Shown in pieces: positions 3,359-38,583 of a stretch of DNA of 64,000 nucleotides. The position numbers and the translations under genes are program-made. The notes below the pieces were generated by a model. The model ran no database searches. It was not told where the DNA came from and was given only the letters and a program-made list of their open reading frames with translations. Within the stretch, counting starts at the first letter, position 1. Each line of letters begins with the position of its first letter. Origin of the DNA: Candidatus Multivorans sp. (GTDB lineage: Bacteria > Acidobacteriota > Thermoanaerobaculia > Multivoradales > Multivoraceae). The stretch spans positions 72,719-136,718 of the forward strand of contig CBDBDB010000016.1 in NCBI GenBank assembly GCA_965203495.1, given 5' to 3'.

Positions 3359-3516
3359 CAGCCCGTGGTGGAAGTGCGCGGGGCGCCGAGAGCGGTCAGG
3401 CGCTCGTCCGGCAACGCGCTACGAGGGAGCATGTCGGGCTGTATTCGACCGAGGAGCAGCGATGCCGCGCGGGATGGTTGGCCGCTCGAATGCAGCGCGA
3501 CGCTCGCCACGGGTTG
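3359..3516. repeat. MITE-like nonautonomous element, copy A (about 158 bp). Termini CAGCCCGTGG...CCACGGGTTG match the TIRs of the IS at 31373-32849
   Basis: Direct comparison with 36624-36781 gives about 78-80% identity over about 158 bp. 9/10 terminal inverted repeat. Lies immediately after the amine oxidase stop codon. Confidence 0.6.
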
Positions 3517-25862: not shown

Positions 25863-26734
25863 ACGACAGCGACAGCCTGAGTCTGACGCCGGATCTCCCA
25901 CGGCAACAGCCGGCGCCGAGACTCGTCCCGGACGCGGCCGCGGAGATGCCGTCGACCGCCTCGTCGACCGCCAGGGAGCAACGACGATTCGGTCCCCTGA
26001 GCCGCCGGCTCGCCGATCAGGGCCTGTTCCTCTTCCGTCACCGCAGCCTCTTCGTCGCGTTTCTTGCGCCCGCCGCTGCACTGGCCGTGCTTGAGCGCCG
26101 GTCGGCGGCCCTGCCGGTCGACTCGGGACTCGCCTGGCTCGCGCCATGCCTCGCCGTCTCCCTGCTCGGCCTCGGCGTGCGGTGGGCGGCCCTGGGTTCC
26201 GCGCCGCCCGGGGCCTCCACCCGGAGCCTCAGGGCGCCGAGCGCCAGCCGGCTGAACACGACCGGCATGTACTCGCTCTGCCGGCACCCGGTCTATCTCG
26301 GCAATCTCTTCGTGCTGATGGGCTTCGCGCTCGCCCTGAAGTCGTGGTGGTTCGTGGTCGTCGCCGCGCTCGTCTACTGGCTGCTCTACGAACGGGTCAT
26401 CGCGGCGGAAGAGCGGTTTCTCGGCGAGCGCTTCGGCGTGATCCACCGCCGCTGGTCGGAACGAACGCCGACCTTCTGGCCCCGGCCCCGTTTGTGGCTG
26501 TCCCCGGAGACGCGCTTCAGTTGGCGAACCGTTCTCCTCCGCGAGTACAACTCCCCGCTGCTCGTCGCGTCGACATTCCTGTTCCTGCGCGCGGTCGACC
26601 AGGTCGTTGTCGGCGGCCTCGGCCCGCAGGCGTGGTTGACGCAGGACTTCGGCCTGGTGGCGGGAGTCCTCGGGCTGACGGCGCCGGTTTCCGTTGCGCG
26701 GCAGGTGCGAAAACGCGGACGCTCGGGCCACTAG
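25859..26734 (+). CDS. isoprenylcysteine carboxyl methyltransferase (ICMT)/PEMT-family membrane methyltransferase
   Basis: TTGMYSLCRHPVYLGNLFVLMGFAL matches the ICMT/PEMT signature (G.Y...RHP.Y). ATG overlaps the ArnT stop (ATGA). Confidence 0.75.
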   Translation: MNDSDSLSLTPDLPRQQPAPRLVPDAAAEMPSTASSTAREQRRFGPLSRRLADQGLFLFRHRSLFVAFLAPAAALAVLERRSAALPVDSGLAWLAPCLAVSLLGLGVRWAALGSAPPGASTRSLRAPSASRLNTTGMYSLCRHPVYLGNLFVLMGFALALKSWWFVVVAALVYWLLYERVIAAEERFLGERFGVIHRRWSERTPTFWPRPRLWLSPETRFSWRTVLLREYNSPLLVASTFLFLRAVDQVVVGGLGPQAWLTQDFGLVAGVLGLTAPVSVARQVRKRGRSGH

Positions 26735-26804
26735 CGCGCCGGGAACCAGCCGCCAGGAATCCGTCGCGGGACGGATTCGTTGCAGAATCGGACGACGAAC
26801 CCCG

Positions 26805-29306
26805 ATGGCCGCCCGAACCAGGATCGCATCCGTCCTCGCCGCGTCGCTGCTGACCTCGGCGGCCGCCGCCCAGGAAGCCGAGAGTCCGCAGCCGCTCGAT
26901 GCCCGCTTTTCCCGCTGGCTCGAGCGGGTACGCCCGCTGATCAGCGACGAGGAGCGGGAGTTCTTCATCAGCCTGCCCGAGGACTACCGCCGCGAGGCGT
27001 TCATCCAGGCTTTCTGGAAGGCCCGGGACCCGGATCCGAGCACGCCGCTCAACGAACTCCAGGTCCTCTGGGAGGACCGGGTCGACACCGCGCTGACCCA
27101 GTGGGGCACGCTGGACGACGCGCGCGCCCTCTTCTACCTGCTGAACGGCCCGCCGGGACGCTTCATCCTTCCCGACGGTCGGACCGCTTCCTACTGCCTG
27201 TCGCGGAGCAGCGAACTGGAGATCTGGTTCTACGGCGGCAGCGACCGCACGCCGAGCCACTTCGTCGTCATCTTTCTGGCCACGAGCCGCGGCCGGCCCT
27301 ACCGGTTCTGGCATGAGACCGTCGCTCGAAGGGCGGCGTCGCGCCAAGGCCTGCCCACCACGAACATCGCCGTGCTCTGCGCCGACGAATGGCTGGGTTG
27401 GGCCACGCAGGCGCTTGCACGCGACCTGGCCGGCGCCGGTCTCATCGAAGACATCTCCTCCCCTCCCGAACCGCCCGAGGAGTGGCTCGCAACCTTCGCC
27501 GCCTTCAACACCGACGTCCCGGAGGGCGCCCCCCGTTTCGACATCGACATCGAGTGGGACTATCCGGGCCGCAATCAGAGCCGCACCGTCACCCACGGCC
27601 TGGTCATGGTGCCCGGTCCCGGCGCCGGCCGCAGGAGCTTCCAGGGCAGAGACTCCCAGGACAGGGAGTACCACAGCTTTCACATGACTGGCGAGGTGAT
27701 CCGCGACGACCGCCTGTTCGACACGTTCCGCTACCGCTTCGAGTTGCCGGCGAGCGACAGCGGCGAGGACTCGATCCCGCTCGTCTTCACTCGCTACCTG
27801 CGTCCCGGCGAGGTCCGGATCCGTCTCAAGATCGAGGATGTCTTCGGCCAGAAGTTCGCCGCGGCGAACGAGACGATCGACGTTCCGAACCTCCAGGAGG
27901 CGCAGTTGCTGCGCAAGACCATCCTCGAGACCTTTCCGGCTCTCGCCGAGGCCAACCGGGCAGCGGCGCGCGGCGAACGCCTGCTCCGCCTCGTGCCGCC
28001 GCGAGACGAACGTCTGCGGGTCGGCATGGTGCGCTTCTCCACCCACGCGATCGGCGACTTCGACGCCGTCGCCTTCTCTCTCGACGGACGCGAGATCCTG
28101 CGCAAGCGGAGGCCGCCGTTCGGCGTGGAACTGAACCTGGGCTCGCATCCGACCGAGCACCGGATCCGGGTGGAGGGCCTCAAGGACGGCAAGGTCGTGG
28201 CGTCGGACGAGATGTCGGTCAACCGCGGCGGCCAGCGCTTCCGCGCCCGTTTCATCGAACCGCGATCCGGCGAGCAGTACCTGCAGAGCACGCGCGCGGC
28301 CATCGAGATCGCGGCGCCGGACGGCGAGGAGATCGAGCGTCTCGAGCTGTTCCTGGGGGAAGAGCGGATCGCGACGCTCTACCAGCCGCCATGGGTGCAG
28401 CCGGTCGTCCTCGACGGTCCGAACCTCACGTACCTCCGCGCGGCCGCGTTTCTGGCCGACGGCAGCAGCACCGAGGACGTCGTCTTCATCAACAGCCCGA
28501 GCCCGATCGAGCGAATCGACGTGCAGTACGTCGAGCTCTTCGCCAGCGTCGTGGACGACCGGGGGCGGCCGATTCCGGCGCTGGAACGAAATCGCTTCCG
28601 TGTCACCGAAGACGGCGTCGAGCAGACGGTTCGCCGCTTCGAGTGGGTCGACGACACGCCCTTCCACGCCGGCCTCCTGCTCGACACGTCGGCTTCGATG
28701 CAGGACTCGATCGAGCAGGTGCGAGCCGCCGCCCAGCGCTTCGTCGACAACACGCTCGAGGCGAAGGACCGGATGGCGGTGCTCGCCTTCGCCAACCGCA
28801 CGCGCGTCGAGAGCCGCTTCACGAAGGACAGGGGCCAGCTCGCGCGGGCGCTGGCGGGCCTCAAGGCGACCGGCACGACGTCGCTCTACGACAGCCTCGT
28901 CTTCGCTCTCAGCTACTTCGACGGCATCAGCGGCCAGAAGGCCCTGCTCCTCCTGTCGGACGGCAAGGACGAGAACAGTTCGTTCACGTTCGAGAGCGCG
29001 CTCGAGACCGCGCAGCGTTCAGGCGTGACGATCTACGCCATCGGCCTCCGGGAGGCGGCAGCGGACCGAACGACGCGGCGGGTGCTCGAACGCATCGCCG
29101 AGGAGACGGGCGGCCAGGCCTTCTTCATCGACAGCGTCAACCAGCTGGACGCGATCTACGCGCGAATCGAGCGGGAACTGCGCAACCGCTACCTGCTCGC
29201 CTACCAGTCGACCAGCGACAAGCCCGAGAGCGAGTTCCGCGTCGTGCGGGTCGACGTGGACGCCCGCGACGCCGAGGTGCGGACGATGGCGGGGTACTAC
29301 CCGTAG
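26805..29306 (+). CDS. secreted GWxTD-domain protein with C-terminal von Willebrand factor A (VWA) domain
   Basis: Signal peptide MAARTRIASVLAASLLTSAAAAQ. N-terminal region FIQAFWKARDPDP...QWGTLDD resembles the acidobacterial GWxTD family. C-terminal LLLDTSASM...TSLYDSL...LLLSDGKD matches the VWA fold (MIDAS DxSxS, T, D). Confidence 0.8.
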   Translation: MAARTRIASVLAASLLTSAAAAQEAESPQPLDARFSRWLERVRPLISDEEREFFISLPEDYRREAFIQAFWKARDPDPSTPLNELQVLWEDRVDTALTQWGTLDDARALFYLLNGPPGRFILPDGRTASYCLSRSSELEIWFYGGSDRTPSHFVVIFLATSRGRPYRFWHETVARRAASRQGLPTTNIAVLCADEWLGWATQALARDLAGAGLIEDISSPPEPPEEWLATFAAFNTDVPEGAPRFDIDIEWDYPGRNQSRTVTHGLVMVPGPGAGRRSFQGRDSQDREYHSFHMTGEVIRDDRLFDTFRYRFELPASDSGEDSIPLVFTRYLRPGEVRIRLKIEDVFGQKFAAANETIDVPNLQEAQLLRKTILETFPALAEANRAAARGERLLRLVPPRDERLRVGMVRFSTHAIGDFDAVAFSLDGREILRKRRPPFGVELNLGSHPTEHRIRVEGLKDGKVVASDEMSVNRGGQRFRARFIEPRSGEQYLQSTRAAIEIAAPDGEEIERLELFLGEERIATLYQPPWVQPVVLDGPNLTYLRAAAFLADGSSTEDVVFINSPSPIERIDVQYVELFASVVDDRGRPIPALERNRFRVTEDGVEQTVRRFEWVDDTPFHAGLLLDTSASMQDSIEQVRAAAQRFVDNTLEAKDRMAVLAFANRTRVESRFTKDRGQLARALAGLKATGTTSLYDSLVFALSYFDGISGQKALLLLSDGKDENSSFTFESALETAQRSGVTIYAIGLREAAADRTTRRVLERIAEETGGQAFFIDSVNQLDAIYARIERELRNRYLLAYQSTSDKPESEFRVVRVDVDARDAEVRTMAGYYP

Positions 29307-29346
29307 CGGCCAGGCCGCTCCGGCGGCGAGTGCGATACTTGGAACG

Positions 29347-30927
29347 GTGCGGTTCTTCAACACGACCGGTCCGATCGTCCCGACGCAGCACTACCATGTG
29401 CCGCCGCTCGAACGGCTGCGGCCTGGCCATCTTCTGGCGCTCATTCGCGACCAACGGTACTTCGTGCTCCACGCGCCGCGACAGACCGGCAAGACGACGG
29501 CGCTGCTCGCGCTCCGCGATCTGCTGAACGGAGGAACGGCCGGCGAATACCGCTGCGTCTACCTGAACGTCGAGGCCGGCCAGGCGGCGCGCGAAGACAC
29601 CGCCGCGGCAATGCGGGCAATCCTCTCGAGGCTGGCGAACGCGGCGCGCATCACGCTGGGCGACGAGTCGCTCGCCGCCCTCTGGCCGGAGACGCTCGGC
29701 AGCGCCGGCGCCCACGGCGCCCTGGGCGCCGTTCTGACCCGCTGGTCGGAGACCGGCACGAGTCCGCTCGTGCTTCTCCTCGACGAGGTCGACTCCCTGG
29801 TCGGCGACACTCTCATCTCCCTGCTGCGCCAGTTGCGTGCCGGCTATACCGACCGGCCCGGGCACTTCCCGCAGAGCGTGGTCCTCTGCGGCGTGCGCGA
29901 CGTCCGCGATTACCGCATCCGCTCCGGCGCCGGGAAGGACATCGTCACCGGCGGCAGCGCGTTCAACGTCAAGGCCGAGTCGCTCGTACTGGGCGACTTC
30001 ACCGAGGGCGAAGTCAACGGACTGCTGGACCAGCACGCCAACGAGACTGGCCAGGAATTCACGGGAGACGCCAGGGCCGCGATCTTCCGCCAGACCCAGG
30101 GCCAGCCCTGGCTCGTGAACGCTCTCGCCGCCCGGACCTGTCCGCGCGACACATCGGGAAGCTATGGCACGAGCGCAGTCACCGTGGATGACGTGCTCGC
30201 CGCGCAGGAAGACATCATCATCAGCCGGGAGCCCCATCTCGACCAACTCGCCGACAAGCTCCAGGAAGAACGCGTGCAACGGGTGGTCGGCCCGTTGCTC
30301 TCGGGCGGCGACGAACGAGAGTTCTCGGCTCGCGACACCGAATACGTTCGCGACCTGGGGCTGACCGCGCGGAACGGACCCTTGCGGATCGCGAACCCGA
30401 TCTATGCCGAGGTCATCCCGCGCGAACTGACCCGCGCCGCTCAGGAAGGCCTCGTGCAGGAAGCGGCGTGGTACGTAGAGAACGACGGGGGCCTCGACCT
30501 GCCGCGGCTGCTCACCGCGTTCCAGGAGTTCTTCCGAGAGCACTCCGAGCACTGGATTCCGCGATTCGACTACCGGGAGTCCGGCCCGCAGCTCCTGCTG
30601 CAGGCGTTCCTGCAACGCATCGTCAACGGCGGCGGCCGGATCGAGCGCGAGTACGGCCTGGGGCGGGGCCGCACCGACCTCCTCGTCGTCTGGCCCCGAA
30701 CCGGCGGAACCGACAGATTCGTCATCGAGTGCAAGCTCCTGCGGGGCCGCCTGGAACGCGCAATCAGCCTCGGCCTCAACCAGACCGCGGCCTACATGGA
30801 CCGCTCCGCCGCCACGGCCGGCCACCTGGTCATCTTCGACCGCGCCGAAGAGAAGCCCTGGCGGGAGAAGATCTTCCGGCGCGAGGAACGGGCCGGGGAC
30901 TTGACGATCACCGTCTGGGGCATGTGA
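29347..30927 (+). CDS. AAA-ATPase-like protein with C-terminal PD-(D/E)XK nuclease-like domain (PF09820/PF08011 architecture)
   Basis: Starts MRFFNTTGPIVP... (typical of this family). Walker A APRQTGKTT, Walker B LLLDEVD. C-terminal ...DLLVVWP...FVIECKLL resembles the PD-(D/E)XK core. Confidence 0.78.
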   Translation: MRFFNTTGPIVPTQHYHVPPLERLRPGHLLALIRDQRYFVLHAPRQTGKTTALLALRDLLNGGTAGEYRCVYLNVEAGQAAREDTAAAMRAILSRLANAARITLGDESLAALWPETLGSAGAHGALGAVLTRWSETGTSPLVLLLDEVDSLVGDTLISLLRQLRAGYTDRPGHFPQSVVLCGVRDVRDYRIRSGAGKDIVTGGSAFNVKAESLVLGDFTEGEVNGLLDQHANETGQEFTGDARAAIFRQTQGQPWLVNALAARTCPRDTSGSYGTSAVTVDDVLAAQEDIIISREPHLDQLADKLQEERVQRVVGPLLSGGDEREFSARDTEYVRDLGLTARNGPLRIANPIYAEVIPRELTRAAQEGLVQEAAWYVENDGGLDLPRLLTAFQEFFREHSEHWIPRFDYRESGPQLLLQAFLQRIVNGGGRIEREYGLGRGRTDLLVVWPRTGGTDRFVIECKLLRGRLERAISLGLNQTAAYMDRSAATAGHLVIFDRAEEKPWREKIFRREERAGDLTITVWGM

Positions 30928-31372
30928 CGACGGTCGTGCCGTCGGGCCTGGAAGGCGTCTGGCCCGAACAGACGGCAGCCTGCATGGACCGCTTCGCGGC
31001 GCCGGCCGGCCTACGGTGCGGAGTCTCTTCGCGGCAGAAAATCTCCCGGCGTGAGAAACGGACCCGGGATGGCGACCGGTTGGAGTGTCAGGTTCTGAGA
31101 CCAGGCGCTGGTAGCTTCCGCGACTCGCCTCGACACTGTCGAGCGCACCAAGGCCACCTCAACCTGCGCCTTGGTGAGTCCACCTTGGGGCTGCCGTGCC
31201 TCACCCACTCAAACCGAGGACTTCCCCATGCATCTTGACCTTCAACGACTCTTGACCGGTGTCTCCACCGACTCGTTCGACGACGGAATCCGCATCGACA
31301 CCTGCGTGCCGCGTGTCGCCGGGGTTCACCCCCCGGCCTTCGTTGAGCGTGGCTAGCGACAATCCCCCTTAT

Positions 31373-32849
31373 CAGCCCGTGGCAAAAGTCGGGCTGTCCG
31401 CCGTTTCGGCTATGCGATAGGATGGGTTCATGGCTATGGGCAAAAGGCGTCGTGAGAATCAGGAGCTTCTCTGGGTGTCTGGATCGGCTCTGCCGCGGAG
31501 TTCCGGCCATCCGTTCTACGAGCGTTTGGACCGTGTGCTGGAGTCGAGCGGTTTCGACGAGTTCGTCGAGTCGGAGTGTGCGGGGTTCTACGCGGAGCGG
31601 ATGGGTCGTCCGAGTCTTCCTCCAGGTACGTACTTCCGGTTGTTGATGGTGGGCTTCTTCGAGGGTCTGGATTCGGAGCGGGAGATCGCCTGGCGTGCTC
31701 AGGACTCGTTGAGCATTCGTGGGTTCCTGGGCTTGAGTGTGACGGAGGGTTCGCCGGATCATTCGACGATTTCTCGCACTCGTCGTCTGATCGATCTGGA
31801 GACTCACGGCAAGGTGTTCAGCTGGGTTCTTGAGCGCTTGGCGGAGTCGGGTCTGGTATCGGGGAAGACAGTGGGCGTGGACGCGACGACGCTGGAGGCG
31901 AACGCTGCGCTGCGCAGCATCGTTCGTCGGGATACGGGTTCTGGCTACGAGGAGTTCGTGCGTGGCTTGGCAGAGGCTTCGGGCTTGGCGACGCTGACTC
32001 GTGCGGAGTTGGCTCGTTTCGACCGCAAGCGGAAGAAGAAGCTGTCGAACGAGGAGTGGGAGAATCCTCACGATCCGGATGCCGAGGTCACGAAGATGAA
32101 GGATGGCCGCACGCACCTCGCGTACAAGGCGGAGCAGGCGGTGGACCTGGAGAGCGGGGCCATTCTGGGTGTGACGCTGCATGGCGGCGCCAAGGGAGAC
32201 ACGGAGTCGGTCCACGAGACGTTGGAGGAGACGTTCGAGCAGGTGGAGTCGGCAGTCGGCGATTCGTCGGTGATCGAGGAAGTGATTGCGGACAAGGGCT
32301 ACCACAGCAACGACGTTCTCGCCTCCATCGACGAGTTGGAGCTTCGCAGCTACATCGCGGAGCCGGACCGTGGTCGTCGTCGTTGGACAGGCAAGAAGGA
32401 CTTGCAAGCCATCGTGTACGCGAACCGTCGGCGGGTCCGCGGCAATCGGGGCAAGCGGCTGCAGCGCCGGCGCGGCGAGCGCGTCGAACGTCCCTTCGCT
32501 CACCAGTTCGAGACCGGCGGCATGCGGCGCTTGCATCTGCGCGGCCGCGACAACGCGCTCAAGCGCCTTTACATTCATTCCTGCGGCTTCAATCTCGGTC
32601 TCCTGATGAGGAGCCTCGCGGGAGTCGGCACGCCACGATCGCTGCAGGGCCGTGTCACGGCAACTCTGGGCGCCCAGACTGGCTTGCTTGCAGCGTTCAC
32701 AGCCCGATTCGACGGGCTGATGCAGTCGATCTGCGCCTCTTGGCGCGCACATCGCCTCGGCTTCCAACTTTGCGTCGCGTAGCGCTGCCCAGACTCAGCC
32801 TCGAAGCAGCAGTGGCACTCCGGGCCGAATCCACTTTTGCCACGGGCTG
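31373..32849. mobile_element. intact insertion sequence, IS5/IS1182-type (IS4/IS5 superfamily), 1477 bp
   Basis: Perfect 17-bp TIRs CAGCCCGTGGCAAAAGT (31373-31389 and 32833-32849 reverse-complemented). Flanked by a 4-bp direct repeat TTAT (31369-31372 and 32850-32853). A single transposase ORF lies inside. Confidence 0.85.
31430..32782 (+). CDS. IS5/IS1182-family DDE transposase
   Basis: 450 aa. Similarity to IS4/IS5/IS1182 transposases (N-terminal DNA-binding region, ...VGVDATTLEANAA..., ...IADKGYHS... DDE region). Lies between the TIRs. Confidence 0.88.
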   Translation: MAMGKRRRENQELLWVSGSALPRSSGHPFYERLDRVLESSGFDEFVESECAGFYAERMGRPSLPPGTYFRLLMVGFFEGLDSEREIAWRAQDSLSIRGFLGLSVTEGSPDHSTISRTRRLIDLETHGKVFSWVLERLAESGLVSGKTVGVDATTLEANAALRSIVRRDTGSGYEEFVRGLAEASGLATLTRAELARFDRKRKKKLSNEEWENPHDPDAEVTKMKDGRTHLAYKAEQAVDLESGAILGVTLHGGAKGDTESVHETLEETFEQVESAVGDSSVIEEVIADKGYHSNDVLASIDELELRSYIAEPDRGRRRWTGKKDLQAIVYANRRRVRGNRGKRLQRRRGERVERPFAHQFETGGMRRLHLRGRDNALKRLYIHSCGFNLGLLMRSLAGVGTPRSLQGRVTATLGAQTGLLAAFTARFDGLMQSICASWRAHRLGFQLCVA

Positions 32850-32985
32850 TTATGACTAGTCAAACAACGCCCGTCAAGCACCGATAGGCAACCGTCCGCA
32901 AGCGCCCGCAAGCGGACACGTGATAGAGTGCTGTTGCGCTGTCAAGCACTGGAGCGCGGCGGCTGCCGGATAGGAGGCTGATCCG

Positions 32986-33171
32986 TTGCCCGCAAGCTAC
33001 TACCCCGACACGCTGACCGTGCGGCTGCCGCCCGGCAGCCGCGATCGCGTGGTTGCCCAAGCCGCTGCGAGCGGCCAGTCGCCCGCCGACTGGCTGCGCG
33101 CCGTGATCCGCCGCGCCGTGGAGTCCGCCGAGCGCCGACGCAAGGCCGCCAACCGCGAGGCCGCATCGTGA
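32986..33171 (+). CDS. ribbon-helix-helix (CopG/Arc/ParD-like) DNA-binding protein
   Basis: 61 aa. TTG start with strong SD TAGGAGG 8 nt upstream. LTVRLPPGSRDRVVAQAAASGQSPADWLRAVIRRAVE resembles the RHH fold (beta strand, helix, helix). Confidence 0.6.
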   Translation: MPASYYPDTLTVRLPPGSRDRVVAQAAASGQSPADWLRAVIRRAVESAERRRKAANREAAS

Positions 33172-33401
33172 GCGCAACCGACACGCTCCGCACGGCCCGG
33201 ACGCTGACCGAGGCCGGAGTTCCCGATCGGCAGGCCGACGCCCACGCTCGGGCAATCGAAGACGCCGCCGCCGACGTTCTGACCCGCGTTGCGACCCGCG
33301 AAGACCTGGCGCAGATGCGCGATCAACTGACATGGCGGCTACTCGGCGGCCTGGGCGCGCTCCTCGCCCTGTTCCGCCTGTCGGAATGGCTGGCTCCGTG
33401 A
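33168..33401 (+). CDS. DUF1640-family coiled-coil protein with C-terminal TM helix
   Basis: 77 aa. GTG overlaps the RHH stop (GTGA). Pattern TLRTARTLTEAGVP...REDLAQMRDQLTWRLLGGLGALLALFRL matches DUF1640 proteins. Confidence 0.55.
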   Translation: MSATDTLRTARTLTEAGVPDRQADAHARAIEDAAADVLTRVATREDLAQMRDQLTWRLLGGLGALLALFRLSEWLAP

Positions 33402-33486
33402 TCGTCGGCGCTGTGGTCGCCTTGCTCCGACCCTGACGGTGAGCGGCGACCGCTGCCCGGAACACTTTGGGTAAAAGAGGGTTCGG

Positions 33487-33624
33487 ATGACTACTATTGT
33501 GATCGCTTGGCTTTTGTTCTCTGCTGGAATACTGCTGATGATCGCCAAGAAGCGCCGTGAAAGCAGTGGCCGTCAGAATTCGGCGCTGGGTTGGGCGATA
33601 AAGAACGCATTGAAGCGCCAGTAA
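33487..33624 (+). CDS. small hydrophobic peptide (45 aa; MTTIVIAWLLFSAGILLMIAKKRRESSGRQNSALGWAIKNALKRQ) in an AT-rich patch
   Basis: Not in the ORF track (below 60 aa). SD AAGAGGG 6 nt upstream of the ATG. Single TM helix followed by a basic tail. Local GC is far below the window average. Confidence 0.35.
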   Translation: MTTIVIAWLLFSAGILLMIAKKRRESSGRQNSALGWAIKNALKRQ

Positions 33625-33719
33625 ACCGCCGATCAGCCGGAGGCTGGCCGACCGCGCCTGCGCGGCACCGTTCTCGCCCCGGACCGTAGGAAGCGCGCCG
33701 CGGACGTAGTGCGGCGTCG

Positions 33720-34451
33720 TCACGATGCGGTGCCGTAGCGCAGTCTGGCGACGGCGCCGCGGCCTGCCAGTTCGGCCCGTGCGTGGCCGGTCGCCGTCCG
33801 CGCATCGCGCCAGCGGCCTGCCTGCATGAGTTCGGCGGTCGAGCCGCCCGCCCGGACGATGGACTGCGCCGACCCGACCCGCAGGGAGTGTCCGCTGACG
33901 CGCCCGGTGACGCCCGCGGCTTCGGCCCGGCGCCGGACGATGGAGCGGACGGACTGGGCCGTGAGGCCATCGCCGGACGGCAGCGGCTGGCCGCCGCGGC
34001 CCAGGCGTCGGAACAGCGGCCCGTCGGCGATGCCTGCCGCGTCCTGCCAGCGCTGGATCGCCCGCATGGTCGGCGCCCCGACGAACAGCACGGCGCCCTC
34101 GGCATCCTGATCCGTCTTCGAGCGCCGGACGGTGAGGCGGCCGGTTCCGTCGCCCGCGTCTTCGAGGTCGGCGACCTGGACGGCTGACGCTTCGCTGACG
34201 CGCAGGAATCCGTCAGACATGAGCCTGAGGATGGCGGCGTCGCGCAGGCCCGCAGGGCTGCCGTCGGCTGCTGCCAGCACGGCGGCGGCTTCGCGCGTCC
34301 GGTGTCGGCGCCCCGCACTCACCCTTCCCCCCTCGACTACGAGCAACTGGGACCGCCCCGGCTGCCCCTGACCGCTACGACTGCTTACCACCGGAAGGAG
34401 AACGAGGAGGAGCACTCCCGTACACCAGAAACACGGCCGAAAGTGGCTCAC
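33720..34451 (-). CDS. tyrosine recombinase/phage integrase, catalytic domain only (probably 5'-truncated)
   Basis: Integrase-family catalytic region (box I Arg around LTVRRSKTDQ, HSLRVGSAQ box II, LMQAGRW, and C-terminal ...VARLRYG nucleophile region). The N-terminal SAM-like/core-binding domain is missing. The N-terminal 70 aa of the ORF are not integrase-like. Confidence 0.6.
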   Translation of the reverse strand: MSHFRPCFWCTGVLLLVLLPVVSSRSGQGQPGRSQLLVVEGGRVSAGRRHRTREAAAVLAAADGSPAGLRDAAILRLMSDGFLRVSEASAVQVADLEDAGDGTGRLTVRRSKTDQDAEGAVLFVGAPTMRAIQRWQDAAGIADGPLFRRLGRGGQPLPSGDGLTAQSVRSIVRRRAEAAGVTGRVSGHSLRVGSAQSIVRAGGSTAELMQAGRWRDARTATGHARAELAGRGAVARLRYGTAS

Positions 34452-34465
34452 TTCCTGAGCGGCGT

Positions 34466-34879
34466 TTGGCTCACTTTCTGACCGTTGCTGCCAACGACGC
34501 GGTGGAGGAAGCGCTGGCCGACCTGGTGACCCGTGCCGACCTGTACCGTGCCCTGCCGATTCAGACTGCGGCGAACGCCGCCGTGGTCGGCGGACTGCTG
34601 GCGTTGTTCCGGCTGATCCCGCAAGCGGTCGCCCGGAATCCCGAGCCGACCCCTACCTACCCCACCGGCGCCAGCCGCGATACCGGCTCGAATCCGGTTC
34701 TTCGAGGCGCGGATGACGGACTGGCCCGCCCCGATGCCCGCCGTGCTGGACGCACTGGAGCGGGCCGGACTGCCGCCCGGCGAGACCCGCCGCCCATCGG
34801 GGAGCCGAGGTGCGGTACGGCCGACACGGGAGCCTCGCGGGACCGGCAGCTCTGCTGCCGCCTGCCCATCCTCATGTGA
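34466..34879 (+). pseudogene. partial second DUF1640-like copy (C-terminal half only), fused to non-conserved sequence
   Basis: ALADLVTRADLYRALPIQTAANAAVVGGLLALFRLIP is homologous to the C-terminus of the 33168..33401 product but has diverged at the nucleotide level. Lacks the N-terminal half. Confidence 0.3.
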
Positions 34880-35006
34880 AGCAGGACGTTTTCGGTTGCC
34901 GCCATTTCGGTTGCCGTTGAAACGCGCACCGGCGGGGACGAACCGCACCGTCCGCAATGACCAAGGAGGACGATGCTCCCATTGGCCGGTGTGCCGAGCG
35001 CGATGG

Positions 35007-36608
35007 TCACCCTGCCGGCAGTTGACCCGCCACATGGGCGGCGAACCCCGACCCCGCCTCCTCGTAGACGTTGAACACGGTCGATACGCCGGCCTGTTCG
35101 AGCGGCTCGACCTCGTCCTCGAACCAGGCCGCGGCAGTGACCCGACCGCTGAACGCGGCAGCCCTCGCCTGTTCGAGAACAGCGAGATTGGCGGCCAGGT
35201 TCGGCAACGTCAGCATGACCAGTTCGAGAGAATGGGCGGATTCGACGCGATCCCAGAAGTCAGCATCGGCGGCATCGCCCAAGAGCACGTTGCGGCCCGC
35301 TGCCCGATGCCGCCGTACAGCGATCGGATCGGTGTCGACGCCAACGACGCCCGCGCCCTCCAGTCGATGCATCGTGTCATAGGCGCCGGCCCCGATACTG
35401 CCCATGCCGATGACGGCCACTCTCGCCTGCCCGATATCGAGGCGCCGGTCATCCGAGAGGCGCCCCTGCCGCTGCAGGCGTCTCCAGACGTTCCTGTACC
35501 GGGCGTAGAGCCGATGGCCCACTGCGTCAAGGCCAGCGGATATCGCGCAGGACAGGGACAGCGCGATTGCGATGACGATCAGCCAGTCGGCGTCGATCCA
35601 GCCATTCGCAACGCCGATGGCCGCGACGATGAGCCCGAACTCACTGAAATTGCCAAGATTGATCGAGGCGAGCAGGGCCGTGCGGGCCTGAAGCCGGAAC
35701 GCCGTCAGCAGGGCCAGAAACAGGCCGGACTTGAGGAACACGAACGGCGCGGCCGCCGTGCCGACCAGGACCGTCTCCAGAGTCAGCCGACCCGACAGAC
35801 CGACGGAAAGGAAGAATGCAAGCAGAAGAAGATCCTTGAAGCCGAGCATCGCCTTTGCCATTTCATCCGCCTTGGCGTGGCCGGCGATCAGAACGCCCAG
35901 CACCAGTGCGCCCAGGTCGCCCTTGAGTCCGACCAGCTCGAACAGCCGCGCGCCGCCCAGGGCAAGCAGAAAGCCGTAGAGGATCAGGAGTTCGCCGTGG
36001 CCGACGCGGCGAAGCAAAAGGACCAGAAGCGGACGGAGCGGAAGGACGAGCATGACCAGAGGCGCCCAGTAGGTCGGCCACTGCCCAACGGAGACGGCGA
36101 GAAAGGCGACGGCCGCCAGATCCTGAACGATGAGAATTCCGATCGCGATCCGGCCGTGAAGCGCAGTGGTCTGCCCCTTGTCTTCCAGGACCTTCACGAC
36201 AAACACGGTGCTGGAAAAGCTCAAGGTGAAGGCGATCAGGAGGGAACGGGCAAGATCGAGGCCGGAAAAGAGGGATGTTCCCAGGACGGCAAGCGCATAA
36301 GCGGCCGTGGCGAACAGGAAAACGACAATCGCCATGTGCAGACCGGCGACGGCCCAGACCTGAGGCCGCGCAAAGGTTCGGAGATTGAGCTTCAAGCCGA
36401 CCGCAAACAGCAACACGGTGATGCCCAGGTCCGACAGCTCCCGGAGCATGTCCCCGCCCGAAACTCCGTAAAGGTTGAGCAGGAATCCCGTGGCCAGGAA
36501 CCCGACCAGCGGCGGCAGTCCGACCGTTCTGGACAGGAGCCCCAGAGCAAACGCCATGGCGATCCACGCCACGTCGCCGAAGTCGGTCACGATCAGCTGG
36601 AAGTCCAC
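35007..36608 (-). CDS. monovalent cation:proton antiporter-2 (CPA2, KefB-like) with C-terminal RCK/TrkA-N domain
   Basis: N-terminal TM1 aligns with KefB (AMAFALGLLSRTVGLPPLVGFLATGFLLN). About 12 TM helices. C-terminal Rossmann VAVIGMGSIGAGAYDTM (TrkA-N). GTG start at 36608 chosen from alignment. MITE copy B abuts it upstream. Confidence 0.82.
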   Translation of the reverse strand: MDFQLIVTDFGDVAWIAMAFALGLLSRTVGLPPLVGFLATGFLLNLYGVSGGDMLRELSDLGITVLLFAVGLKLNLRTFARPQVWAVAGLHMAIVVFLFATAAYALAVLGTSLFSGLDLARSLLIAFTLSFSSTVFVVKVLEDKGQTTALHGRIAIGILIVQDLAAVAFLAVSVGQWPTYWAPLVMLVLPLRPLLVLLLRRVGHGELLILYGFLLALGGARLFELVGLKGDLGALVLGVLIAGHAKADEMAKAMLGFKDLLLLAFFLSVGLSGRLTLETVLVGTAAAPFVFLKSGLFLALLTAFRLQARTALLASINLGNFSEFGLIVAAIGVANGWIDADWLIVIAIALSLSCAISAGLDAVGHRLYARYRNVWRRLQRQGRLSDDRRLDIGQARVAVIGMGSIGAGAYDTMHRLEGAGVVGVDTDPIAVRRHRAAGRNVLLGDAADADFWDRVESAHSLELVMLTLPNLAANLAVLEQARAAAFSGRVTAAAWFEDEVEPLEQAGVSTVFNVYEEAGSGFAAHVAGQLPAG

Positions 36609-36623
36609 GACGCGGACCGTCAG

Positions 36624-36781
36624 CAGCCCGTGGTGGACGAGCGCGTCGCGCCGAGAGCGGTCAGACGCCCGTCCGGCAAGGAGCGACGAGGGAGCCTGCC
36701 GGTCCAACCTCGATCGAGGAGCAACGGTGCCGGGCAGGGTGGTTGACCGCTCGAATGCAGCACGACGTTCACCAGGGGCCT
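36624..36781. repeat. MITE-like nonautonomous element, copy B (about 158 bp), with a more degraded right terminus
   Basis: Aligns base-for-base with 3359-3516 at about 78-80% identity. Begins CAGCCCGTGGTGGA... and overlaps the 5' UTR/start region of the antiporter gene. Confidence 0.6.
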
Positions 36782-36787
36782 CTAGGT

Positions 36788-37582
36788 CTAGGCGAGCGCA
36801 ACAGCCACGTCAGCCAGCCGAACGCCCAGGCGGGCCGTCCGAAGGCGGATCTTCACCAGCGGAACAAGGGCCGAAGGACGCATCAGGGCTCCTCGAACGA
36901 CCGGACCCAGCGGCATGCCCCCGTCGGGCGCCGGCACGCGCTCGAGCCACGACGGAAGTCTATCCGCCGCCGTGTCGCTGATCGCCCGCACCGCGGCGAA
37001 GGGAACGTCGGCCCGCTGAAGCACCCGGGCCGCCGCCCAGCTCTCCATGTCGACGGCGGTCCGGGGGAGGGCGCCGGCGCGCCGCCAAAGCGCCTCGCGC
37101 GACGACGCGGTGACCGCAAGACCAGGCGCCGTGACCAGAACGCCGCGGCGACAACCCCGCGCCGCGGCCGCCTCGATCAGGGTCTCGTCGCCGCTCATGG
37201 ACGGCTGGTCCGGCGCCATCACCGTCCGGCCGACGACCAGATCGCCCACCTCGAGGTCCGGCGACAGGGCGCCGGCGACGCCAAGCCAGACCACCCTGCC
37301 GCAGGCGCCGCGGGCAGCCAGGCGAACGCAGCGTTCGGCGGCCCGCCGCGCCGACCGCTCGCCGACCCCGCAAACCGCCACCTGGACGGACCGGTCTCCG
37401 ATGCGGCCTCGAACAGCCGCGGTGGCCGCGCCATCCTCGACGCGCGAGGCGTCCGCCACGCGGCGCAACAGGGTCGAAGCCTCCGACTTCATCGCGGCGA
37501 GGTAGACGGTCGGCCCTCCAGAGGCCGGCGGGGACGCCGGCGAAGCCAGTGCGGGACCCCGCGTGCCGCCCGTCGTCGTCAC
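36788..37582 (-). CDS. hpnG: hopanoid-associated phosphorylase (PNP/MTA-nucleosidase family), HpnG-like
   Basis: PNP_UDP_1-type motifs (TVYLAAMKSEA..., AVCGVGE, TAVDMESWAAARV). GTG start at 37582 overlaps the hpnA stop (GTGA). Alternative ATG at 37492. Confidence 0.7.
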   Translation of the reverse strand: MTTTGGTRGPALASPASPPASGGPTVYLAAMKSEASTLLRRVADASRVEDGAATAAVRGRIGDRSVQVAVCGVGERSARRAAERCVRLAARGACGRVVWLGVAGALSPDLEVGDLVVGRTVMAPDQPSMSGDETLIEAAAARGCRRGVLVTAPGLAVTASSREALWRRAGALPRTAVDMESWAAARVLQRADVPFAAVRAISDTAADRLPSWLERVPAPDGGMPLGPVVRGALMRPSALVPLVKIRLRTARLGVRLADVAVALA

Positions 37583-38583
37583 CGACGCGGCCCCGCCTTC
37601 ACGTAACCGTTCCGCTCGAACCACCGCACGGCGCGCCGGAGCGCGTCTTCGATCGGACTCTGGACGAGGCCGAGCTCCCGAACCGCCTTGTCGGCGTCGA
37701 AGAACATCCTGTGGCGCGCCATGCGCGCACTGTCGAGAGCGATGCGCGGTTCACCCCCGGCCAGCCGCGCCCAGCCGGTCGCCAGGGCCGCGAAGCCGAT
37801 CGGCAGCCAGTGCGGCAGCCGCAGGCGCGGCGCTTCGATCCCCGTGATGTCCGCCAGCATCCGCAGCATCTCGATCAGGGTGACGTTGCGGTGGCCGAGA
37901 ATGTACTTCTCGCCGACGCGGCCGCGCTCCGCGGCCAGCAGGTGGCCCCGGGCCACATCGTGCACGTCGATCAGGTTGAGCCCGGTGTCGACGGTCGCCG
38001 GCATGCGCCGAGCCAGGAAGTCGACGATGATCCGCCCGGTCGGCGTCGGCTTGACGTCCAGTTCGCCAACCGGCGTCGACGGGTTCACGATGACGACCGG
38101 CACGCCGTCCGCGGCCGCCTCGACGGCGACGCGCTCGGCCTGGTGCTTGCTGCGCTTGTAGTGCCCGACCATCGCCCCGACGCGGACGGGAGTCGTCTCG
38201 GTCGCGGGGAGGCCGTCCGGTTCCAGACCGAGCGCACCCACCGAACTCGTGTAGACGATTCGTTCCGCTCCCGCCTCGGCCGCCGCCGCCAGCAGGTGGC
38301 GCGTGCCGTCGACGTTCGAGGCGTAGAGGTCACGCGGGCGGCGGGCGAACAGACGGTAGTCGGCGGCACAGTGGTAGACCTCGCCGCAACCCGCGCAGGC
38401 TGCCCGGAGACTTGCGGGATTCCGCAGATCCCCCTCGACGACCTCCACGTCGCAGCCCTCGAGGTTCGAGCGGTTTCCGCCCGGCCGCGCCAGGCAACGA
38501 ACGCGGTCCCCGCCGCGAGCGAGCAACGCCCGGACCACGTGCGCGCCGACGAACCCGGCGCCGCCCGTGACGAGGACCGTCAC
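37579..38583 (-). CDS. hpnA: hopanoid-associated NAD-dependent sugar epimerase/dehydratase HpnA
   Basis: MTVLVTGGAGFVGAHVVRAL Rossmann start and SDR-extended epimerase core (YxxxK: YKRSKHQAE). Sits between hpnH and hpnG. Confidence 0.85.
   Translation of the reverse strand: MTVLVTGGAGFVGAHVVRALLARGGDRVRCLARPGGNRSNLEGCDVEVVEGDLRNPASLRAACAGCGEVYHCAADYRLFARRPRDLYASNVDGTRHLLAAAAEAGAERIVYTSSVGALGLEPDGLPATETTPVRVGAMVGHYKRSKHQAERVAVEAAADGVPVVIVNPSTPVGELDVKPTPTGRIIVDFLARRMPATVDTGLNLIDVHDVARGHLLAAERGRVGEKYILGHRNVTLIEMLRMLADITGIEAPRLRLPHWLPIGFAALATGWARLAGGEPRIALDSARMARHRMFFDADKAVRELGLVQSPIEDALRRAVRWFERNGYVKAGPRR

Follow-up and report, generated by a model that had tools for sequence, protein, structure and literature searches.

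A turnover slot beside the hopanoid operon of a Candidatus Multivorans genome, probably filled piecemeal and holding remnants of two related integrative elements

Our aim was to explain how a patch of about 7.5 kb, dense in mobile-element features, came to lie between a gene for a VWA/GWxTD protein and the 3' end of a hopanoid operon (hpnH-hpnA-hpnG) in Candidatus Multivorans sp. The window analyzed here is the whole 64-kb stretch of contig CBDBDB010000016.1 (69% G+C). The patch contains an AAA+ ATPase gene, an insertion sequence (IS), a small ribbon-helix-helix (RHH) gene followed by a DUF1640-like gene, a truncated integrase, a second, partial DUF1640 copy, a Kef-type antiporter gene (kef) and a miniature inverted-repeat transposable element (MITE); their positions are collected in Table 1. 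An earlier note on this DNA had proposed a decayed integrative element or a recombination hotspot. We find support for both, in archetype elements and in the varied cargo of sister genomes, but not for one element: the patch holds two remnants together with unrelated pieces. With a probability of roughly 80%, it is a variable slot filled by successive insertion, deletion and decay of unrelated pieces, including the wrecks of two elements.

We scanned the VWA/GWxTD protein against one genome per species and obtained 39 close relatives (73-90% amino acid identity). These are metagenome-assembled genomes (MAGs) or closed genomes labelled Thermoanaerobaculia, Holophagales or 'Candidatus Multivorans', many of them sponge-derived, and the source genome is not among them. 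In a blastn comparison of window positions 28800-37800, homology with the relatives stops at 29306-29333, at most 27 bp beyond the VWA stop codon, and, wherever hpnG is within reach in a relative, restarts at 36788, the final base of its stop codon. The limits lie almost exactly where the earlier note had drawn them. The patch proteins (AAA, transposase, RHH, DUF1640, integrase and Kef) are absent from the loci of all 39 relatives and are present in the protein collection on one single contig. Most relatives carry at this place, after the VWA gene, a group-II pyridoxal phosphate (PLP) decarboxylase (Pyridoxal_deC, 3.5e-67) and a luciferase-like (LLM) oxidoreductase (Bac_luciferase, 6e-48), co-oriented with hpnH-hpnA-hpnG. 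About 30 of the 39 have both genes or, failing that, the oxidoreductase gene, and the pair was not found anywhere in the 64-kb window. Seven relatives have hpnG directly after the two genes (gap 2.4 kb), and in others 1.4-7 kb of varied material separates the oxidoreductase gene from hpnG. This material includes a VapBC pair with an AraC-like regulator (L003), AAA_14-DUF4143 ATPases (L007, L011 and L012; also nearby in L029, L036 and L038), an IS, and a spondin/cadherin/fn3/PKD protein. Since the cargo of this slot changes from one sister genome to the next, the position between the VWA gene and the 3' end of the hopanoid operon is a genuine turnover hotspot.

The composition of the patch is deviant and heterogeneous. 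When the 2-kb windows of the 64 kb are ranked by tetranucleotide deviation, the top eight all fall at 30-37 kb, with z reaching 9.2 over the IS. Core genes have a G+C content at third codon positions (GC3) of 0.83-0.90; the AAA gene is native-like by this measure, and the IS, kef and a 45-codon open reading frame (ORF) are deviant. Of two G+C troughs proposed earlier, the one at 33450-33630 stands (GC 0.536, below all 180-bp windows outside the patch, minimum 0.567), and the one at 31.1-31.45 kb is marginal (0.60-0.65) and in part the end of the IS. The earlier note had named synteny across relatives, uniform composition and a full-length integrase as findings that would speak against a mobile patch. 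We found no synteny in the 39 relatives, uneven composition and, as described below, a truncated integrase.

The integrase ORF matches Phage_integrase (PF00589, 2e-12), with homology beginning at about residue 24-45. Its closest homologues (81-77% identity) have 328-333 residues and the family 310-333, compared with only 200 in the source annotation. In a profile built from 90 full-length homologues (∼312 positions), only positions 117-310 are matched and ∼116 N-terminal positions are missing; a search of all frames of 30800-35100 with the same profile turned up no sequence coding for an integrase N-terminus. The nearly invariant catalytic tyrosine (position 223) is histidine in the window sequence alone (codon 33783-33785). 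Because the core-binding (SAM-like) domain is missing and the nucleophilic tyrosine is lost, the integrase, judged by its sequence, cannot work, and the reading of the gene as a recombinase lacking its N-terminal domain holds. We also considered that the N-terminal half might lie to the left of the IS, as if a circle had been opened inside int in the SSV manner; tblastn gave noise only, and the profile matched nothing outside 33723-34652.

Full-length integrase homologues sit on small phage- or plasmid-like contigs, which serve as archetypes for the remains in the window. L056 (8.5 kb) has AAA_25 and large-terminase (TerL) genes; L057 and L058 are one 7597-bp contig in two circular permutations, with a Prim-Pol/AAA_25/helix-turn-helix (HTH) replicase; and L070-L077 represent a 9.5-kb circle (identical 1560-bp ends in L070). 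The order in L070 is int (320 aa, leftward), 166 bp, an RHH-like gene (59 aa) and DUF1640 (73 aa, 4-bp overlap), followed by five small ORFs, a 580-aa protein with no family match, a TerS/HTH-like protein and a metallopeptidase-like protein. In L056 and L057 the RHH homologue heads an operon divergent from int, and DUF1640 is not present. The window integrase shares 72-76% nucleotide identity with the L070 and L056 genes, whereas a scan of IMG/VR with the integrase returned only ∼42% relatives. Three blastn matches to L070 occur in the expected order and orientation: window 32936-33265 with L070 5776-6098 (71%; RHH and the 5' part of DUF1640), window 33711-34292 with L070 4686-5268 (72%; int) and window 34508-34637 with L070 6106-6237 (85%; the 3' part of DUF1640).

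These matches divide between two remnants. Removal of the IS and of one TTAT makes 31315-31372 and 32854-33000 collinear with L056 across the int 5'-untranslated region (UTR), a palindrome and the RHH promoter region. The palindrome, GACAA-N6-TTAT, lies between int and RHH (window 31361-31376 / 32850-32856; L056:3170-3195; L057:1395-1420; L070:5683-5703) and overlaps a sigma-70-like int promoter (TTGACG-17-CATAA) at its -10 element; it may serve as an operator or as the core site of a recombinase. Its TTAT arm is the part that the IS duplicated. At its centre, L056 and L057 read GGGGGA, L070 reads ACAGGA and the window reads TCCCCC, the last being the exact reverse complement of the first. We considered this inversion as a trace of site-specific recombination; the third hexamer, in L070, makes simple variability equally likely. 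Remnant A would consist of the UTR, the promoter region interrupted by the IS, RHH and DUF1640 copy A, its own integrase gene, once to the left, having apparently been lost.

In remnant B, DUF1640 resumes at profile position 14, ∼50 bp past the integrase catalytic domain, and comparison with L070 shows a loss of ∼0.7 kb, comprising the N-terminal part of int, the promoter region, RHH and the opening codons of DUF1640. The partial second DUF1640 copy recognized in the earlier note is real. Its codons 14-30 are degenerate, with TGGCTCACTTYCTGA occurring twice at 34444-34481, and its C-terminal part differs by one residue from P0027 of L070-L077. The TGGCTCACTTYCTGA repeat, shared with L038, was considered as an att site or transposon end until the DUF1640 profile identified it as the degenerate 5' part of copy B. 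Copies A and B belong to different C-terminal subtypes and are therefore not a recent duplication. Two related elements that inserted head to tail and later eroded are the simplest reading of these remains; it is a reconstruction.

In L070 itself, a second copy of the last ∼230 bp of int (L070:4418-4652 versus L070:4693-4921, 83% identical) lies directly downstream of int, and window 33732-33941 is closer to this duplicate (82%) than to the full int gene (72%). Elements of this kind may therefore enter at the 3' end of an integrase gene already present and thereby build up tandem arrays. In L038, three to four tandem 74-bp repeats of int-5'UTR-like sequence, GTCGCCGGGG..CCGGCCTTCGTTGAGCG, occupy L038:18820-19200, and ∼140 bp away window 34443-34487, which is the degenerate 5' part of copy B, recurs at 87% identity; neither the 74-bp repeat motif nor the 34443-34487 motif occurs elsewhere in ∼1.3 Mb of fetched loci. 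Adjoining these element remnants is a 347-aa ORF (L038:19289-20332) built from a Cys-rich unit (C-x2-C ... RPPA.GKK.C..C) that recurs about a dozen times.

We propose the following order of events. The ancestral PLP decarboxylase and luciferase-like oxidoreductase genes, absent in this lineage, would have left a slot that was refilled piecemeal. An intact AAA+/PD-(D/E)XK gene would have come to stand beside what remains of the 3' end of an older copy. A pair of related small integrative elements, in intact form circles of 7.6-9.5 kb with integrase, divergent promoter/palindrome, RHH, (DUF1640), small ORFs and a primase-helicase, would have inserted head to tail and eroded. Remnant A would have kept the int 5'-UTR, promoter region, RHH and DUF1640, and remnant B an int catalytic domain joined by the ∼0.7-kb deletion to the 3' four-fifths of its own DUF1640 gene. 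The IS5/IS1182-like IS would have transposed into the intergenic palindrome of remnant A, duplicating TTAT, and a Kef-type antiporter, probably acquired horizontally, would have taken the position downstream of hpnG with the MITE between them. With the integrase dead, the remaining pieces would be fixed in place.

Table 1. Positions of the features in and beside the patch, numbered within the 64-kb window
Feature	Position	Strand	GC3	Basis or remark
VWA/GWxTD protein gene, Acidobacteria-type	26694-29306			upstream neighbour of the patch
Lineage-specific patch	29334-36787	.		blastn breakpoints; no DNA homology to the same slot in 39 related genomes
AAA+ ATPase with putative C-terminal PD-(D/E)XK nuclease domain, 526 aa, intact	29347-30927	+	0.87, native-looking	Pfam AAA_22/AAA_35
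Decayed copy of the final ∼50 AAA codons (pseudogene fragment)	30955-31070	+		direct repeat, 57 nt at 77%
Remnant A, left part: int 5'-UTR-like sequence with left arm and centre of the palindrome GACAA-N6-TTAT	31315-31372	-		
IS5/IS1182-like IS, 1477 bp	31373-32849	+	0.76 (transposase)	transposase 31430-32782
Remnant A, putative promoter/operator region	32850-32985	.		alignment to L056/L057/L070 intergenic regions
RHH DNA-binding protein, 61 aa, leading gene of element operon	32986-33171	+		homologues in the same position in L056, L057, L070
DUF1640-like tail-anchored coiled-coil membrane protein, copy A, 77 aa	33168-33401	+	0.78	start overlaps RHH stop (GTGA)
AT-rich 45-codon ORF	33487-33624	+	0.61	GC 0.51; one predicted transmembrane helix, basic tail
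Remnant B: tyrosine recombinase, catalytic domain only, Tyr to His	33720-34388 (ORF 33720-34451)	-	0.77	alignment, profile
DUF1640 copy B, without first ∼13 codons	34439-34640	+		profile positions 14-81, E 1e-7
CPA2 K+/H+ antiporter with TrkA-N domain (Kef/YbaL-like), apparently intact	35007-36707	-	0.71	PF00999, PF02254
MITE, ∼155-159 nt	36624-36782	+		between kef and hpnG; 5 nt from hpnG stop codon; termini match IS inverted repeats

The IS is bounded by perfect 17/17-bp inverted repeats, CAGCCCGTGGCAAAAGT, at 31373-89 and 32833-49, and by a 4-bp target-site duplication (TSD), TTAT, at 31369-31372 and 32850-32853, as the earlier note had seen. Its 450-aa DDE transposase matches DUF772 (2e-16) and DDE_Tnp_1 (1e-9) in Pfam. 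The best NCBIfam models are IS1182 (3e-52) and IS5_4 (4.5e-27), both below their equivalog cut-offs (178 versus 270 bits), and the protein shares ∼50% identity with plasmid transposases, among them one with an IS5-family annotation. The MITE has the left terminus CAGCCCGTGG, the same as the IS end, and folds end to end into a hairpin (z -2.85). Further copies occur in the window at 3359-3513 (82%) and, partially, at 180-∼250, and there are two in L017; a clean TSD was not seen at the MITE. We take it from its termini to be a MITE of this IS family, and it could be mobilisable by the same family. The earlier description of a MITE-flanked antiporter did not hold up: there is a single MITE, and a search for a second on the other side of kef (34641-35006) found nothing comparable.

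Kef matches PF00999 (6.6e-37, profile positions 3-363 of 375) and PF02254 (5e-15), and scores below the equivalog cut-offs of the NCBIfam YbaL, KefC and CPA2 models. The first 28 codons of the longest kef ORF lie inside the MITE, and the likely start is a GTG near 36611. The gene stands downstream of hpnG, where relatives have the oxidoreductase gene, co-oriented with hpnH, hpnA and hpnG and with only the MITE between hpnG and kef. The promoter or 5' end of kef may come from the MITE, which might alternatively let transcription run through from the hopanoid operon.

At the other end of the patch, the AAA protein matches AAA_22 above threshold (E 6e-7), the only such Pfam match for the window's own sequence. 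An exhaustive search returned a family of 5217 cluster representatives, mostly ∼520-540 aa (typically ∼525 aa) and alignable end to end. Among 24 aligned members, AAA_22 matches all 24, AAA_35 20, PDDEXK_9 and AAA-ATPase_like 7, and NucS_C 4, the best PDDEXK_9 match being 6.5e-6. A Walker A/B P-loop is present, with G48-K49-T50 and D146 invariant in the family alignment. At the C-terminus of the window protein, PDDEXK_9 remains below cut-off (E 0.012) and the D...E-x-K motif is visible as D...E-C-K; the earlier assignment as an AAA-ATPase gene is upheld, and the PD-(D/E)XK domain is putative. The gene appears to be an intact member of a large uncharacterised ATPase-nuclease family. The sequence at 30955-31070 shares 19/40 residues with its 3' end (BLASTP, E 2e-6) and is a relic of an earlier copy. 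PADLOC found no match for any of the six proteins scanned (AAA, RHH, DUF1640, micro-ORF, integrase and DUF1640 fragment).

The RHH gene starts with TTG, 8 nt behind an AGGAGG Shine-Dalgarno (SD) sequence, and its stop overlaps the DUF1640 start as GTGA; the RHH assignment, the SD and the coupling had all been predicted and agree with our data. Homologues of 59-60 aa share 52% (L056, E 1e-14), 49% (L057, E 1e-12) and 39% (L070) identity. The AlphaFold2 (AF2) model (pLDDT 84) has helices 18-29 and 33-60 following an extended N-terminus, and nearly all its Foldseek matches are RHH proteins (AmrZ, probability 0.99; CopG-like ORF56; VapB; Arc; NikA). A profile search of the PDB returned VapB26, CopG and AmrZ; Pfam matches stay below threshold, and in a word-index search the protein itself is the sole match. 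In the region upstream, we read from the minus strand a predicted sigma-70-like int promoter with its -35 at 32872-77 and its -10 cut by the IS at 32850-54. The plus strand carries tandem CCGCAAGCG repeats at 32896-904 and 32906-914 (consensus CCGCA(A/G)(G/A)CG), a predicted extended -10, TGaTAGAGT (32921-29), and the SD at 32972-77; a generic promoter/terminator scan yielded nothing useful, and Rfam has no match at E <= 0.1 within 28.5-38 kb. Given its conserved position at the head of the operon, beside tandem repeats and promoter, the RHH protein is most likely an autoregulating element repressor acting on the CCGCAAGCG repeats.

The assignment of the second gene to DUF1640 stood in part. 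Copy A scores 17.2 bits against Pfam PF07798 (E 0.005), short of the 33.5-bit gathering cut-off; the assignment rests on one homologue with a precomputed PF07798 match (P0045) and on a VATRED beta-layer motif. In DUF1640 proteins this motif, [aliphatic]-A-T-K-x-[DE], marks the start of the stalk (PMC4786415). We collected 48 close DUF1640-like homologues of 71-89 aa with a few shorter fragments, which share an N-terminal 'TDTLRTA.TLTEAGVPDRQA', a V/L-(A/V)-T-R-x-D/E motif and a hydrophobic C-terminus; copy A is modelled as two helices with such a C-terminus. A scan of metagenomes with the DUF1640 alignment found only ten distant loci (L078-87), and a plasmid database searched with DUF1640 gave no match. 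In two of the distant loci the DUF1640-like genes form tandem pairs (L079:3995-4500, L081:415-971).

The function of this gene pair bears on why it has survived. The earlier note had suggested an addiction or regulatory module, and a toxin-antitoxin system, with RHH as antitoxin and autorepressor and the membrane-anchored DUF1640 protein as toxin, would explain the survival. The antitoxin-like gene order with its 4-bp overlap is kept in L070-L077, both ORFs are intact beside a dead integrase, the RHH model resembles many RHH antitoxins, and DUF1640 homologues occur in VapBC-rich islands and on a small plasmid. The partners, however, change. On the plasmid (L064-L067, a 6.3-6.4-kb circle with Rep (PF03090) and MobA/MobL, from four samples in different circular permutations), a DUF1640 protein 86% identical to ours (83% at the nucleotide level) overlaps a DUF3847/TraD-like gene and there is no RHH; DNA homology of L064 to the window is confined to the DUF1640 ORF. 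In the closed chromosomes L050-54, a 76%-identical intact DUF1640 in a VapBC-rich island follows an ORF that is at most a degenerate RHH-like remnant (tblastn and profile without match). None of the ten distant metagenomic loci has an RHH or integrase match or a recognisable RHH-like ORF directly upstream, RHH homologues head operons without DUF1640 in L056 and L057, and the pair taken together corresponds to no toxin-antitoxin family in PADLOC, Pfam or NCBIfam. Since DUF1640 is found with other partners or alone, and RHH without DUF1640, an obligate toxin-antitoxin pair is not supported; the DUF1640 gene travels independently of RHH, and we regard addiction by this pair as unlikely. The regulatory half of the suggestion fits an operon-leading RHH protein. 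DUF1640 might, speculatively, serve exclusion or membrane anchoring of element functions. A bolder proposal, which we consider rather doubtful, makes RHH-DUF1640 the conserved 'early' module of an undescribed family of 7.6-9.5-kb circular integrative elements in sponge-associated Acidobacteriota, and DUF1640 a mobile exclusion or addiction factor. Such a factor would keep related elements from entering or becoming established, or would damage cells from which the DUF1640 gene has been lost, and would account for DUF1640 on the small MobA plasmid, for its multi-copy state in these genomes and for the intact pair beside a dead integrase.

The patch as a whole might instead be one genomic island of ∼7.5 kb taken up in a single acquisition, in which the AAA gene and kef would be cargo and the integrase the decayed recombinase. 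The contiguity of the block, its abrupt ends at 29334 and 36787, its deviant overall composition and the presence of an IS and a recombinase gene would suit this. The parts, however, differ strongly in GC3 (AAA, IS and kef in Table 1), there are two DUF1640 subtypes, the integrase and RHH parts belong to two separate truncated copies, none of the archetype elements carries the AAA_22/PDDEXK gene or kef, and the slot turns over piecemeal in sister genomes. Att-like direct repeats, which the earlier note had suggested looking for at 29.3 and 36.8 kb, were found neither at these borders nor around the element remnants, and the 64-kb window contains no tRNA gene as a target. We judge a single acquisition quite improbable. 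Still less credible is an assembly artefact, that is, a metagenome bin in which the patch or an inner junction is chimeric at IS/MITE repeats. The source contig appears only as a MAG-type record, and such repeats are classic misassembly points; yet both outer flanks are syntenic with relatives, the IS TSDs match and IS removal restores collinearity with L056, the MITE abuts the hpnG stop codon with homology continuous from 36788, and a 97%-identical DUF1640 protein (P0002) exists on another 396-kb contig. Several points nevertheless weigh against piecemeal filling with two tandem elements as we reconstruct it. No att sites or element borders can be defined, which makes the tandem arrangement a reconstruction, and much the same traces would be left by a single element plus one further piece of DUF1640, or by dispersed copies recombining with each other. 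Neither the 310 bp containing the micro-ORF nor 34641-35006 matches anything; the 45-codon ORF itself has no homologue in any fetched locus and no family match. The contig is probably metagenome-assembled, so that a join inside the patch is possible, though flanks and IS junctions are coherent. The relatives were compared at the locus only; other parts of their genomes, or of the source genome, may contain Kef, the AAA gene or the decarboxylase/LLM pair.

Further observations concern neighbouring slots and the plasmid. The spondin-type cargo of L011 and L007 (L011:17851-20250, L007:19677-22052) is a protein of 790-800 aa that combines Spondin_N, cadherin, fn3 and PKD domains and is inserted beside hpnG, a eukaryote-like surface protein of a kind typical of sponge symbionts. 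In the variable region past the VWA gene of L038 (L038:15311-18772), an AAA ATPase (328 aa) is directly followed by an 824-aa ORF resembling a subtilase (S8) peptidase; both were judged by eye only, and together they resemble a defence-type gene pair. The L064-L067 plasmid also has two uncharacterised genes of 326 and 312 aa.

For annotation, the 200-aa 'integrase' of the source record is to be treated as a pseudogene. In this lineage the downstream partners of the hopanoid operon have been swapped for what is probably a foreign K+/H+ antiporter behind a MITE, and the set of genes co-expressed with hopanoid biosynthesis could change. From the archetypes, a family of small circular integrase-RHH-(DUF1640)-primase elements in uncultured sponge symbionts can be outlined for the first time. 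That bacterial DUF1640-like proteins ride mobile elements is a lead to the function of the domain, not a discovery in itself. The patch is a clear example of a familiar phenomenon, and its novel leads are only the undescribed element family and the mobile DUF1640-like gene.

Comparison with known systems places each piece. The IS and the MITE share with IS5/IS1182 elements and their MITE derivatives a DDE_Tnp_1 plus DUF772 transposase, short terminal inverted repeats, a 4-bp TSD at a TA-rich target and ∼159-nt non-autonomous copies with common termini; the IS differs from members in its sub-cut-off NCBIfam scores, in the ∼50% identity to its nearest plasmid transposases and in having no ISfinder name. 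The AAA protein resembles 'predicted AAA-ATPase' (AAA-ATPase_like plus PDDEXK_9) and AAA_14-DUF4143 proteins, P-loop ATPases fused to a PD-(D/E)XK-type domain that are typically solitary genes of variable regions and whose AAA_14-DUF4143 analogue occurs in sister slots; unlike the former, it reaches threshold with AAA_22 only, and it has no PADLOC defence match. The recombinase domain shares the R...K...H-x-x-R...W signature and the C-terminal motif of Cre with Cre/Xer-like tyrosine recombinases, but compared with working members it appears to be a relic. The DUF1640-like proteins have the N-terminal head helix, the V-A-T-R-E-D at the stalk start (PMC4786415) and the C-terminal transmembrane segment of DUF1640/CCDC90-like proteins (PF07798), and are far shorter (71-89 aa compared with a 175-position model) with a sub-threshold score. 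The L064 plasmid parallels small E. coli MOBQ plasmids, in which an annotated DUF1640 gene stands beside mobA and traD (PMC13516913).

The archetypes resemble satellites of the phage-inducible chromosomal island (PICI) and P4 type in layout: int, a divergent promoter region and a small DNA-binding first gene, with a Prim-Pol/AAA_25 replicase in L057, an AAA_25 gene alone in L056, a TerS-like (L070) or TerL (L056) protein, and circles of 7.6-9.5 kb. They differ from PICI and P4 in having an RHH protein rather than a Cro/CI-type HTH protein as first gene and, in L070 and the window, a DUF1640-like membrane protein as second; the likeness is one of layout, capsid or interference genes were not recognised, and the window holds fragments only. 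Unlike the usual hotspot, the patch has no tRNA or recognisable att target, and the ancestral genes of the slot are absent, not merely interrupted. With mobile-element graveyards and accessory-turnover hotspots it shares fixed core flanks, cargo that differs from genome to genome, a truncated integrase, IS and MITE insertions, deviant composition, and toxin-antitoxin and ATPase-nuclease genes in the slots of its sisters.

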